This document shows, one piece after another, positions 6,001 to 12,000 of a DNA stretch of 64,000 nucleotides. The DNA is from Escherichia coli. Lineage in GTDB: Bacteria > Pseudomonadota > Gammaproteobacteria > Enterobacterales > Enterobacteriaceae. Position numbers: made by a program. Position 1 is the first letter of the stretch, and each line of letters opens with the position of its first letter. Where the stretch lies: the NCBI RefSeq assembly GCF_003790525.1, contig NZ_CP033635.1. One strand, given 5' to 3'.

Positions 6001-9000
6001 GGGAAGATAATAAGAATGCAGAAAACGTGAAGGAATTTCTGCAATCTTATCAATCGCCCGAAGTCGCTAAAGCGGCAGAAACCATCTTTAACGGTGGCGC
6101 GGTGCCTGGCTGGTAATTCTCACTCATGCCGCGCCGGACGATTTATTTTTCTGGCGCGGCGACGGGAATCCATTGAAATCAAAATCACTGATGACAGAAT
6201 CAGAAGCGTTCCCAGCCAGTCCGGTAATGTGAATGTGATCCCCAGCAACAGCAAAGAGAGCAGCGCGCTACTTAATGGTTCTGCACAGCTCAAAATGCTG
6301 GCTTTTGGACCGCCAATTAATTGTGCTCCTTTCAGGTACAGACTAAATGTCAGGGACGTACCAATGACCACCAAATAAAAAAACGCCAGAATCAAACTGC
6401 CATTAACCACAAAATTTGTCCCTTGTCTGGCATAAAATGGCAGCAGGATCAGACCACCAATGAGCATACTCCAGCCGACGACCGGTAACGTGCCATAGCG
6501 GGCAATCAGCGTTGAGGGATAGGTGGTATAGAATGCAGCAGCAAATGCCGAGGCAATGCCCCAGAATAACGCGGCAGGAGAGATCGATAATGACGTCGGA
6601 TTACCGTGTGTCACCAATAAAAAAGTCCCGATCAGCGATGTCAAAATAGCGCAAAAAACCAGAATGCCCGGGCGCGATTTACGTACCAGTGAGAACCAGG
6701 CGACGATAATCGTCGGTGAGAGGAATTGCAGCACCGTTGCCGTGGCTGCGTTCGATTTTTCGATGGTTAGCAAAAAAGTGAGCTGTACGGTTAGCGCGCC
6801 AACCACGGAAAAAATCAGCAGACTAATGGCATCTTTGTGATTGTTAATAATAGAAAAGATTTTATCGCCATGAACAAATGACAGCGTCAGCAGAATCAAA
6901 CCGGCGAATATCAAACGCGTCATAGTCAAAAACTGCGACGACATCTGGCTTTGCTCCATGATGTATTGCGCGCAGACCCCTGAACTTCCCCACAACACGG
7001 CGGCAATCAGAACGTTCAGCATCCCCTTTCTGGTGGAACCCATTTTTCCCTCTGCATACTGTTTTGTCGTTTATGTATGCAGGCATGATAGCAAAAATGG
7101 CGAGGATGGCTCTGTTTGCGCCACGCCGATTTTTCTTAGCCCAGACTGGTGAGCTAAATATCTTTAATAAACAGCAGGCAAATCATCGCAATACCCAACA
7201 TCCCTATCGCCAGCCAGAACAACGCGTGGTAGCTCCAGATTTCAACCATAATTCCGTCAACAGAGCCGGCGATAATCCAGCCGACGCGTGAGGTATTTGC
7301 ATATAACGTTGTCGCAGAGCCTATTTTTTCAGGCATCAGATCCTGAAAATAAAGCATGCCGATACCACAGAGAATACCAAGGAAAATGGCATTTAGAATT
7401 TGCAATTCCAGCTCAATTGCCGGAGTCGTCGCCATGAGTACGCTGGCGTAAAAACACATACCACTCACGATAGCAATGAGCATTAATAGCCGCTTGCCAA
7501 TACGTTTCATGTAATAGCCTGCGATTAACATCATCGGAATTTCCAGACCGGCAGCGATACCAATCATTTCTCCAGCCAGTTTATCGGTTAGATGCAGTTC
7601 ATCAATAATAAATAGCGGCATATTTATCATGTAGAGATTATTCGCCGCCCACATCATTGAACAGACTACAAAAAGTAGCCGTGTATCCCGCTTTCTATGG
7701 ATGGAGGGTAAAATTTCTACGGGTTGGGTAACGACAGGAATATTTCTTTGTATTGATGGCAAAAACAACCAGACTATCAGTCCGCAAACAACAAATGCGA
7801 TGGCAGCGGTGAGATACATCACTTTAAAACTAAATCCCATTGCCAGTTCATAAGCGAGCGGTGGCCCGATAACCCAGGCAAGCGAGATCTGAGCACGTAA
7901 AAATGTACTGAACATGACCGTCTCACGGCCTGTTCTGTCGGCGTGTTCACGGGCGAGGGCGAACATTTGCGGGTTTGCAGTGGAAGCAAAACTACTCAGA
8001 AGTACGCCCGTAGAGAGGAGAATGAAGTAGTTGCGATTCCACGCAAAAAGCGTGCAGGCCAACACTCCAAATAAGCAACATAGCAGGATCAGTAATTTAC
8101 GGTCGCCTTGTTTATCGGAGTGCCTTGCCAGAAATTGACTGACCAGAATCCCCATAATAGCGCTACCGGTGAAGAAAAAACCTACCATTATAGGACGGGC
8201 TTTCAGTTCATCTGCGAGGAATATACTTAGGGTGGGAGTCTGGAGAGCGCCCGCAATACCCGTCAGAAAGGCGACAAGTAAAAATGCCGCGGCAGTGAGA
8301 TCAAGTATTTTTGATGGAGTAGTAGCCGTTTTTTGCATTCTTCTGAATCACCGGGCGACAAAATATAACTGAGTTACAAATAAGTACCAGTCGAATGAGT
8401 ATTGTATTAAGAATTTTTGAGTATCGCTGATACAACCAGAAAGCAATGCTAGCGCAATATTATAGGGCCAGCAATTGAGATTATTAGCAAAAGCATGTTA
8501 AGAGTTAATCACCGAATTTATATATTAATTATAGTAAGGCAATGAGCTATTTTTGATAGTAAAAATAAAACAAGTTGATTTGATATATTACATGAATAAA
8601 TTAATCTTGATGGCAGTCTGATTATTGGTGAAGTTTATAGGTCAGTTTTTTCGTCAGCGGTTAAAGAAATAGAATAGTCGTATAAAAAAGGGTGTGCAGA
8701 AGCGTGTAAAACAACATCTTCACCTTAATGGCGATACCGTTGGCTGAGAGTCAGCAGGGGGGCAAATCACCTGCAAATAAACACGGCGCATGCTGGCGCG
8801 AATATCGCGGATGCGTTCGAGGACAGAAGAACCGACAGGCGGATTCTTCAGTCGCTCATCGTCCATCACAAAACTTTTGATCAGGTATTCCTGAAGCCAG
8901 TAGAAAATATCTGGATTGACAGTATTACGAGGGGTTGGAGAACGTATGAAGAGGCAAATTGGCGATCACAGGAGTCGAATATGAATGTTAATGTTTTGAT

Positions 9001-12000
9001 TTTAAATGATTAATCTGTGTTGGATAAATGAGTAACCCCCATAAGAACCCCCAAATAACTTAGTGTAAGGGAATGAAGCTAAAATACACAATCGAATCAA
9101 TTCTTAGAGCTTTATTATGAAGGTAACACTCCCGGATAGTGTTTCGCAATAATATCATTCAGCCTGTCAACCAGTTCTGGTTTCCTGAACCTGATGTGCG
9201 CGGAGCCTTTCTTAAAGTATCTGATGCTGAACATCTCATCTTCATAGCATTCTTTACCCTGAACAGACCGGATGTGATCATCCAGACGAATAGTGATGTT
9301 TTCCCGGTTGTCGGGGATCGGTTTGCCGCTGAACAGATGTAGCATTCTTTCCAGGTCGACGAGTCGGTCAGTCTGTTGCCCGGTGATAAGATGAAACCCC
9401 CACCGGTCCCACCTCACCAGGTTGTTGACGATAATTTTACTGCCAAATTTGCAGGGGCAATTGGTTTTGTAATTCCAGCTCAGTCCCCTGAAGACGTTGA
9501 TCACCCCTCGCTCAAACACCTCATCCTTATTCTGGTGTAGTTGTTCAAATGTGATCAGAATGTTCGCTTCACTGATTTCCGGAAAATTATCGTACTCCAG
9601 TGACCGGTACCATGTATCACGGGCCTGTGCATCCATTAAGGAAAGCATCCCTGAACGTTGCATCAGGTCACGCCAGATTTCGCGGTCAAGATTCCGGGTA
9701 ATGGCTTTCATTGCTGTTTCTGGTTTCTCCATCAGCCAGCAACCACAGCGAAAATTCTGTTTCATCGCCCAGTCCGGGGCGGCTTTACCGCCAATACTTT
9801 CCGTCAGTGCTGAGATTTCTGTCAGTTGCCGGATAAGCGTGTCGATTTGCAGCAGTGTACTCTTTCGTACAGCCAGGATGTGTCTGATACTTGTGGAACA
9901 GATAACGGCTGTATGTCCGTTGACCGCGTTCGGGGGGGGATTGTGATATATGACATTATGGGGTTTCCTTTCGGTTTATAAACGAAAACGCCAGCTCTGT
10001 TCAGGCTGGCGTCAGGAGAATGAAGTCTGGTGAGTGAGATTCACCGGTTCTGGTGCAGAAGTTGCAGTTGGTGCAGGGTACGGATATCCTCCCTGGCCTG
10101 TTCAATACAGGGCAGCAGTGCTGCCGAATCCGTTTTATCCTCATCGTTGTCGAAAATAATTCCGGACCCGCAGTCGATATTGTCCTGCAGCCACGCAATG
10201 AGGATATCCAGCGCTGTTTCAGTGGTTAATGGCATCACGCTCTGTATCACTGTATTGTCTTCCGGCAACTGATGAGAGCTGGCAGAAGTCGCCGGTGTTT
10301 CGGTAGCGTCACGTTCATCCACCACGCGGAGTGAATAACCGTATTCAGCGACCTTGTTAATCAGTTCAGTGAGCTCAACACCATCAATGTCAACGACAAT
10401 TCGCCCTATATTCAGTGCCTGTACGTTAACGCTGTCTGCTTCCAATGTCAGGGCCAGTTTCATCATTTCGCCTCCGGATACTTACCCAGGGTAATGTTAT
10501 TTACCGTTCTGTAATTGTCGCGGGTCATCAGGCCGGTCGCCCTGCGAGCCCGGAGGATATCGATGCTGTTTATTAACTGAGAGCGGGTACAGGCGCTGAA
10601 TCCCGGCTGGTCGGTACGTACCAGCGCGTATTTTTCCACGAGAAAGTTCACCGCATCACACAGTGAAATGCCCGCTTCAATATGCTGCTCAATCACACGT
10701 TCATCCGCGAACGGTGTGTCATTCAGCGCGAGGCCGTAGTGCTGGTCCAGTAACCGGGTGAGCAGTGTCTGCCAGATGGTGACGGGAGACGGGCAGCACG
10801 ATGCCTCCCGTACATGCGTGTCGGGTAATGTTTTCATAATGAAGATTTTCCTGATATGCAGAGATAAAAAATGGGACAGTGGCGTGGTGAAAACACCAGG
10901 CCGGAGCAGAAGATTATTCTGATGATTTACTTTTTCGTTTCGGGCGTCGGATAAACAGCCAGATAAACGTAACCACAGGAGCCGAGGGTGTCGGCTTCAC
11001 AGGTCAGCCCCTTCGCATACAGTGTCACGGTATGCTGATGGCGGGGATTCAGTTCACCGCTGGTGAGCATGAGCTCCAGTTGTTTCATCAGCAGCGGAAA
11101 GGCCTGGTCCGGATGGTACGCATCCGCATCTCTGAACCGGCCTCTGATACCGGCACGGTCGGCAAGGTAATGCAACCGGTTACCCTCCTGCACCAGACGT
11201 GCCCCGAAACAGGGCGTCACGGTGCAGGGCAGTCCCCACCAGAGGCGGTCGTGATTGTCGTCGTGATGCGTTGTCCCGGGGAGTGTGTCTGACACGATAA
11301 AATCCTCACAGAAAATCGTTGAATGATAGTTTAACTTTGACAGGTCAGCCGGTGCGCAGACCGGCTTCGGTGAAGGTGTATTCGTTGATGAGAAGGGCCT
11401 CATCCACAGGGGCATCTGAGGTCAGCCTGTTGTGCTCGTTTTCCAGTTGACGGTACAGCCAGAAGGCCAGGTCGCGCAGGGCTTCGCTGACAGCGGCTTC
11501 CGCATCTGTTGTCATAGTCTGACCAGTCGGACTGTTCCGGGTGACGGTGATATCCATGCTGTACGGATGGCAGTAGCGTCCCCGGCGGTGGATTTCAGCC
11601 TGCAGTTGCCAGAAGTTACGCTTCTGCACCGCCTGCAGGGCATCCGCGATACGATGGAGTTCATGCTCCTGTGGGGCATACTTCCGGATTATCCGGGCTG
11701 TCGCCGGCTGCCAGTGCCAGCGTCCTTCAAAACAGGCTCCGTCCCCCTGGCTGCAGCATCCGCTGAACCAGATGCACGGCTCTTCCATAAACCTGCCGTT
11801 GCTGAGCCGGAAAACGCGCTGGCGGAGGTCAATTCCGAAAATGTCACAGACCGCCCTGAAGTCCTCATACACGTTTTCATACCAGTTGCTGTCAGCATGA
11901 TGCTGACGGTACCCGTCGCGGGCTTTTTCCCGTGCCGGGCAGGAAAGTTCATCCAGCGTATACACTGTGATGGTGATAATTCTGCTCATCAGAATGCCCT

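Follow-up and report, generated by a model that had tools for sequence, protein, structure and literature searches.

A stretch of 64,000 nt from the Escherichia coli contig NZ_CP033635.1 (assembly GCF_003790525.1), called the window below, contains a displaced fragment of selC, the gene of the selenocysteine tRNA. This fragment, at positions 8960-8979, is the ordinary attR of a large mobile genomic island in selC, a known kind of feature, and it fixes the island boundary to the base, at 8979/8980. With high confidence, it can be explained as the attR core of an island integrated site-specifically at the 3' end of selC, in which a deletion of 4 nt belongs to the chromosome. This deletion is an inherited allele of the chromosomal half-site, carried by about 1,100 genomes behind different elements.

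The selC half-site

The selC-derived string TGGCG^ATCACAGGAGTCGAA (= TGGCGATCACAGGAGTCGAA) corresponds, as a reverse complement, to the terminal 24 nt of selC, from which 4 nt are missing at the caret, so that 20 nt remain. The 3' end of K-12 selC reads ...TTCGACTCCTGTGATCTTCCGCCA, its reverse complement being TGGCGGAAGATCACAGGAGTCGAA; the missing nucleotides can be written GAAG or GGAA on the + strand, which in the tRNA sense correspond to CTTC or TTCC. Uninterrupted identity with selC extends over the 16 nt GATCACAGGAGTCGAA, at 8964-8979. With both strands checked, this copy is the sole selC k-mer of at least 11 nt in the window. The feature is recorded as follows.

8960-8979, - strand: displaced selC 3' half-site (attR core), TTCGACTCCTGTGAT^CGCCA in the tRNA sense, the first 16 nt being selC

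In the alignment with K-12, the string occupies the position homologous to the selC 3' end, and homology goes no further than the repeat: with both BLAST and MAFFT, collinearity with K-12 breaks exactly at the last repeat base, 8979. To its left, window 4798-8979 follows the K-12 order (yicS, nlpA, yicL, setC and the selC-setC spacer) at 95.5% identity. To its right lies the island body, 8980 to 64000, at least 55,021 bp long, no part of which matches the K-12 selC region. A direct repeat made from the 3' end of the target tRNA gene forms the distal boundary of the island here.

No tRNA gene was detected by ARAGORN or Rfam in the whole 64 kb. A second copy of the repeat and an integrase gene were looked for within the window and none was found, and neither yicJ nor yicI of K-12 has a match anywhere in it. 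The initial annotation of this DNA, made from the sequence alone, had described the string as the reverse complement of the tRNA-Sec 3' end with a 4-nt gap, placed about 620 bp from the setC start, with no intact selC in the window and with accessory DNA only to its right, in an island of at least 55 kb. This description is confirmed: the string aligns with the real K-12 selC, the measured distance to the setC start codon is 622 nt, no selC lies adjacent to the site, and 8980-64000 is accessory throughout.

The far end of the island in related genomes

The comparison set consisted of 5,426 complete E. coli genomes; counts given here are raw and disregard clonal structure. Window 8339-9400, which runs from the setC spacer through the repeat and the island end into the start of a DUF4942 gene, was matched over at least 80% of its length in 689 of them, and all of the matches listed span both rhuM, a remnant in the spacer, and DUF4942.

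Two relatives, HS4 and TUM9803, display the layout setC, repeat, island, P4-type integrase, intact selC and yicJ. In HS4 the chromosomal flank and the deleted repeat are identical to those of the window, and the far end of the island, 51 kb away, carries a 394-aa P4-type integrase and an intact 95-nt selC, then yicJ; beyond about 33.7 kb of the window, the two cargoes diverge. The TUM9803 island follows the window collinearly, with 98.3-99.97% identity, but lacks two of its segments, an IS1414 (27321-28635) and a stretch of 20 kb (41526-61476). Its repeat is the intact 24 nt, and its far end, 61 kb away, shows the same integrase protein as HS4 (WP_001218900.1), an intact selC and yicJ. This integrase is of the P4 type (NF007246/PRK09692, E=1e-94) and is 71% identical to that of the P4-like selC satellite of strain SMS-3-5.

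A search with the right end of the window (57500-64000) returned mostly insertion sequence (IS) elements, and the last 2.5 kb proved collinear with TUM9803. The last base of the window aligns 25.9 kb short of the TUM9803 selC, which predicts a total island size of about 81 kb; about 26 kb more of the island would be expected beyond the window, ending in the integrase, selC and yicJ. The earlier prediction that selC and an integrase occupy the far end gains support from the layout of both relatives, the far end itself being outside the window.

This layout bears on a different reading, in which the fragment is the remains of a destroyed selC, left by a fixed insertion or rearrangement, and the other end of the island in this genome has no intact selC. 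In its favour, the 64 kb show no selC, and the IS-rich right part of the window could have caused deletions. The reading is nevertheless improbable: the selC query was matched in 5,422 of the 5,426 complete genomes, far-end selC and integrase are present in HS4 and TUM9803, both of the relatives with the junction type that were checked, and the collinear end of the window stops 26 kb short of the TUM9803 selC.

The 4-nt deletion follows the chromosome

Island ends, repeats and chromosomal flanks occur in several combinations, listed below.

CP4-like end, intact 24-nt repeat, K-12-type flank: TUM9803
CP4-like end, deleted repeat, flank type of the window: window, HS4
CP4-like end, deleted repeat, B2-type flank: 536, CFT073
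P4-like end, deleted repeat, flank type of the window: SMS-3-5, LS45, KFu014, M172-1
P4-like end, deleted repeat, B2-type flank: CU42ET-1

Window 8200-8979 is matched at 99.9% identity or more by 23 complete genomes, 6 of which align only to 8976. The flank type of the window is found in 23 genomes, and the deletion accompanies it in 23/23, 22 of these sites being occupied and one empty; no complete genome was found in which this flank type is joined to an intact selC. The B2-type flank query was matched over at least 80% of its length by 1,104 genomes, and the matches listed all have the deleted repeat, without a single one being joined to an intact selC. The deletion tracks the flank and not the element, and the intact 3' end of selC is therefore supplied by the element. 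Since the deleted half-site stands behind two unrelated elements and at one empty site, recombination must have used it more than once.

The empty site is that of strain 702/18, on the flank type of the window. Here selC itself, lacking the same 4 nt, is 91 nt long; no other genome of the complete-genome collection has a truncated selC in an empty site. Its Rfam tRNA-Sec score falls from 83.8 to 69.4 bits, and the Rfam alignment shows broken acceptor-stem pairs and no encoded discriminator-CCA tail. Separately, HH45 and EC16 agree with the truncated-selC probe up to position 55, apart from one mismatch, which points to a further rare variant at the selC 3' end.

The deletion could alternatively have come with the element, if an imperfect attP had recombined 3' of the gap and attR had inherited the defective copy. 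Some attR bases are element-derived, as illustrated by the P4-like satellites, which contribute a mismatch (TTTGACT vs TTCGACT) to the left edge of the repeat. This origin is nonetheless most doubtful. On K-12-type flanks the same CP4-like end adjoins an intact repeat, on two other flank types a deleted one, while two unrelated element ends both show the deletion whenever the flank is the same. Moreover, just 5 nt (CGCCA) are left 3' of the gap to accommodate the crossover, and in the empty site of 702/18 the deletion is in selC itself.

A slightly poorer case can be made for private decay, that is, a repeat intact at integration which, being unselected, mutated later in the island copy of this strain. 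A tRNA fragment, once displaced, can decay freely, the 24-nt repeat is intact in most genomes that share the island end, and imperfect attR copies are common in islands at pheV (PMC11537424). This reading is contradicted by 22 other genomes in which the same deletion comes with the same flanking substitutions and the same 15-bp deletion, and which include strains with an unrelated 11-kb P4-like satellite as well as one empty site; the deletion recurs on the second flank type in about 1,100 genomes. A restriction of the deletion to the SMS-3-5-like lineage was also considered, and was overturned by 536, CFT073 and the genome-wide count on that second flank type. Of the term degenerate, used for this copy in the initial annotation, the imperfection can be retained; a decay since the arrival of the island cannot, the gap being an inherited allele of the chromosomal half-site.

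Finally, a chance match, for which only the short length could be invoked, is refuted by its homologous position in the K-12 alignment and by shuffling, which, with two mismatches permitted, gives 0.01 expected matches against the one found in the window.

Proposed integration mechanism

An island integrated at selC next to a chromosomal half-site with its own deletion would have arisen by standard tRNA-gene integration. A P4-type tyrosine integrase would recombine the attP of the element with selC, this attP carrying a copy of the last 24 nt of the gene. When attP is rebuilt by joining the island ends of TUM9803 and HS4, it reads ...cattcata, then TTCGACTCCTGTGATCTTCCGCCA, then gtttacctc..., and the 24-nt block starts at the first T-loop base in the Rfam alignment. 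The copy of the element would complete a functional selC beside the integrase at the far end (attL), and the 3' end of the chromosome itself would be pushed to the distal end beside setC, where it constitutes attR. At the left edge of attR, P4-like elements always show a T of their own (TTTGACT); combined with the chromosomal deletion at the right, this would place the crossover within GACTCCTGTGAT.

In this lineage, an intact selC would exist only through the 3' end supplied by an element. A precise loss of the element would leave selC 4 nt shorter in its acceptor stem, as in 702/18, and this 91-nt selC is probably non-functional, as suggested by the Rfam alignment and the reported phenotype of strain 536-21. 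The latter is listed as negative for pathogenicity island (PAI) I and for selC, with reduced anaerobic fitness (PMC6385356). In the sequenced genome of 536, the attR of PAI I, the island lost in 536-21, has the same deletion.

Several points weigh against this explanation or limit its reach. Identity across the junction is nowhere 100% in the 5,426 genomes, the best value for 8339-9400 being 99.1%. The integrase and the intact selC are outside the window, and the far end of the island in this genome is predicted from its relatives; as the island in the window has a 20-kb insertion relative to its closest relative, the total size is an extrapolation. The probable loss of function of the 91-nt selC is deduced from the Rfam alignment and the 536-21 phenotype, and the exact crossover position in the 24-nt block is an inferred one. 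This analysis gave no sign that the island can still excise.

Significance of the broken half-site

The junction, its truncation and the reported consequence for selC are all already known. What is mildly new is the population picture: a broken half-site is fixed in about one fifth of the complete genomes, its occupants change, and it is almost never empty. The site is occupied in about 1,126 of the approximately 1,127 genomes with the deleted half-site; among all genomes, a constructed empty-site sequence finds a match over 80% or more of its length in about 46%. Formate dehydrogenases are the selenoproteins of E. coli. The loss of an island would leave selC with a damaged acceptor stem, which could help to explain the near-constant occupancy in these lineages. 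In about one fifth of sequenced E. coli, mostly those with the B2-type flank together with the SMS-3-5-like lineage, selenocysteine incorporation might even depend on the current occupant of selC, a passive 'addiction' keeping the site filled; this proposal is tentative and is made with limited confidence. For annotation, the repeat is useful in that one boundary is fixed and the other predicted about 26 kb past the window, even if this is not new biology.

Chromosomal side of the junction

The features found to the left of the repeat, starting from the junction, are listed below; open reading frames are abbreviated as ORFs.

8339-8959, no strand: selC-setC spacer, K-12-like (alignments); a separate haplotype, set apart by a 15-bp deletion and by substitutions clustered beside the repeat
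8735-8896, - strand: rhuM-family pseudogene remnant, yicT in K-12 (RefSeq annotation in relatives; Pfam PF13310 Virulence_RhuM, E=1.7e-11)
7154-8338, - strand: setC, of the intact core genes the one nearest the junction (ORF list; RefSeq annotation of the identical HS4/SMS-3-5 sequence; K-12 collinearity)
3997-4494, 3132-3749, 1969-3105 and 805-1956, all - strand: ORFs of a translocator cluster, with YopB/SseC/SipB-like, hypothetical and SycD/LcrH-like chaperone products

The rhuM remnant comprises 54 codons, corresponding to positions 52-98 of the 252 of the PF13310 model, and is present in nearly all E. coli; in the window it has a 15-bp deletion compared with K-12. The spacer on the core side thus already holds a relic of older foreign DNA. 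RhuM is, we assume, a gene of SPI-3, the selC island of Salmonella; if so, the spacer may hold the last trace of a far older selC island common to nearly all E. coli.

Substitutions are clustered in the 18 nt beside the repeat, 8942-8959, with 5 in the first 14 nt compared with K-12. Three substitutions in this segment agree with the bases found after selC at the island-side attL of HS4 and TUM9803, and two of the changes are also observed on the B2-type flank. The att homology, or a past heteroduplex repair, may reach past the end of the tRNA.

The core part of the window, 1-8338, is 100% identical to several strains. The K-12-like gene order that had been announced to the left of the repeat is valid as far as yicS and does not apply to window 1-4797. 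That region, left of yicS, contains a type III secretion translocator cluster in place of the K-12 nepI; in relatives, an IpaD/SipD-like protein, EilA and the EaeX/Air adhesin come next. Near 3139 in the window, a T-run has lost 1 nt relative to LS45 (T8 to T7), splitting the SipB-like gene; this could be either a real pseudogene or a homopolymer sequencing error.

Content of the island within the window

To the right of the repeat, the following features can be distinguished.

8980-9114, no strand: non-coding island terminus of 135 bp, on the element side of attR (aligns with the TUM9803 and HS4 island ends, not with K-12)
9115-9957, - strand: DUF4942-family gene, the first gene of the island (ORF list, annotation of relatives)
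10041-16553, - strand: CP4-type 'yee' module (ORFs mapped to the TUM9803 RefSeq annotation, 98.3% identity), with the seven entries that follow
10463-10837: CbtA toxin
about 10927-11295: YeeU antitoxin
12288-12764: RadC/JAB
12780-13259: antirestriction
13341-14159: DUF932
14345-15229: GTPase
15330-16553, + strand: hypothetical gene
after the yee module: Gp2-like and AlpA-like genes
21959-27214: LacI/PTS (phosphotransferase system)/transketolase operon
27321-28635, 33618-34900 and 57591-58905: three near-identical copies of IS1414 (IS256-family), in one orientation
31129-32850: YadA-like adhesin
35032-38229: YaiO/GT2/PIG-L
39162-40972: TRAP transporter
43590-44114: sodC
44210-48119: ABC transporter
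48335-50293: GlpQ/ROK
51792-53351: AbgT
53663-57487: S6 autotransporter protease, 1,274 aa
59243-61659: ISEc23
62163-62876: MgtC/SapB
62940-63974: nucleoside hydrolase

The content of the island is accessory, mosaic, IS-rich and strain-variable, its segments having different best relatives. IS3-family copies are interspersed in it, and the three IS1414 copies in the same orientation are potential substrates for internal deletions or inversions. The GC content varies from 0.43 to 0.56 per 4-kb step; this composition is heterogeneous and gives no mark of the island boundary. The same island-end sequence as that of 8980-9114 is present in 536 and CFT073.

Some individual genes deserve a comment. 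In the DUF4942 gene, 1 nt is lost from a C-run after the ATG (window 9930-9960), and the annotated start is consequently out of frame; the 5' end reads CCCCCACCC in HS4 and CCCCCCCC in the window and TUM9803. The gene of the YadA-like adhesin includes five to six tandem 99-nt repeats, 90-98% identical, at 31708-32301, and its length in relatives (HS4, GF60, TUM9803) varies from 1,260 to 1,548 nt. The 20-kb block at 41526-61476 contains sodC, the ABC transporter, GlpQ, ROK, AbgT, the S6 protease, IS1414 and ISEc23, with IS3-family sequence at its edges; its genes are found elsewhere in the TUM9803 chromosome and, in GF60, in an island adjacent to kps.

Comparison with known systems

A close parallel is PAI I536 of the uropathogenic strain 536, a selC island bordered by short direct repeats. 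At its distal end the junction is the same, ...cataTTCGACTCCTGTGAT^CGCCA, including the 4-nt gap and the 16 nt common with selC; TTCGACTCCTGTGATC is directly followed by GCCA in the window, HS4, 536 and CFT073 alike. A 16-bp repeat was reportedly described for PAI I536 by Blum et al. in 1994, a length that agrees with these 16 nt. The island ends of 536 and CFT073 align with that of the window (...ttaa[ct]a[ct]tcata), with DUF4942, DUF957 and CbtA/YeeU ahead of them. In PAI I536 the same DUF4942/CbtA/YeeU yee module adjoins the junction, and a P4-type integrase stands beside an intact selC at the other end. The two islands differ in their cargo, which is haemolysin and fimbriae in PAI I536 and comprises sugar-uptake genes, a YadA-like adhesin and the S6 protease in the window; they also differ in their chromosomal flank, since setC is absent in 536 and present in the window.

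The P4-like satellites, which we take to be of the phiR73 type when found at selC, use the same attB and leave the same displaced half-site behind, as illustrated by the 11-kb element of SMS-3-5. This element is compact, with a primase, Psu/Delta-like genes and a probable defence cargo, and its attP homology reaches further 5', with mismatches (GGCAATTTTGACT). Strains which share the core of the window (SMS-3-5, LS45, KFu014, M172-1) have this 11-kb satellite at selC instead of the island. Directly after its integrase comes a 906-aa SIR2-family gene, probably a defence cargo.

More generally, selC is an island hot spot, occupied by PAI I536, the enterocyte effacement locus (LEE), SHI-2, Tia-PAI and the locus of adhesion and autoaggregation (LAA), and the flanking repeats of Tia-PAI have been reported to be identical to those of PAI I of uropathogenic E. 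coli (PMC7545054). LEE, SHI-2 and Tia-PAI share the insertion site and carry unrelated cargo.

The islands at pheV (GI-pheV, PLoS Genet 2024, PMC11537424) have the same layout, with a P4-type integrase beside the tRNA gene, modular cargo, a distal yee module and an often imperfect attR formed by the tRNA 3' end, whereas their tRNA target and their integrase differ from those of the selC island. Their imperfect attR copies include single-base deletions, for which a stabilising effect was proposed (PMC11537424). A nearly identical island, with 98.6-99.9% identity over about 48 kb, is found in GF60 beside the kps capsule genes, with a different integrase of its own. Judging from the kps neighbourhood, and with no pheV feature listed in the stretches examined, this copy is presumably located at pheV. 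Such a copy at another site argues that cargo of this kind moves freely between tRNA sites.

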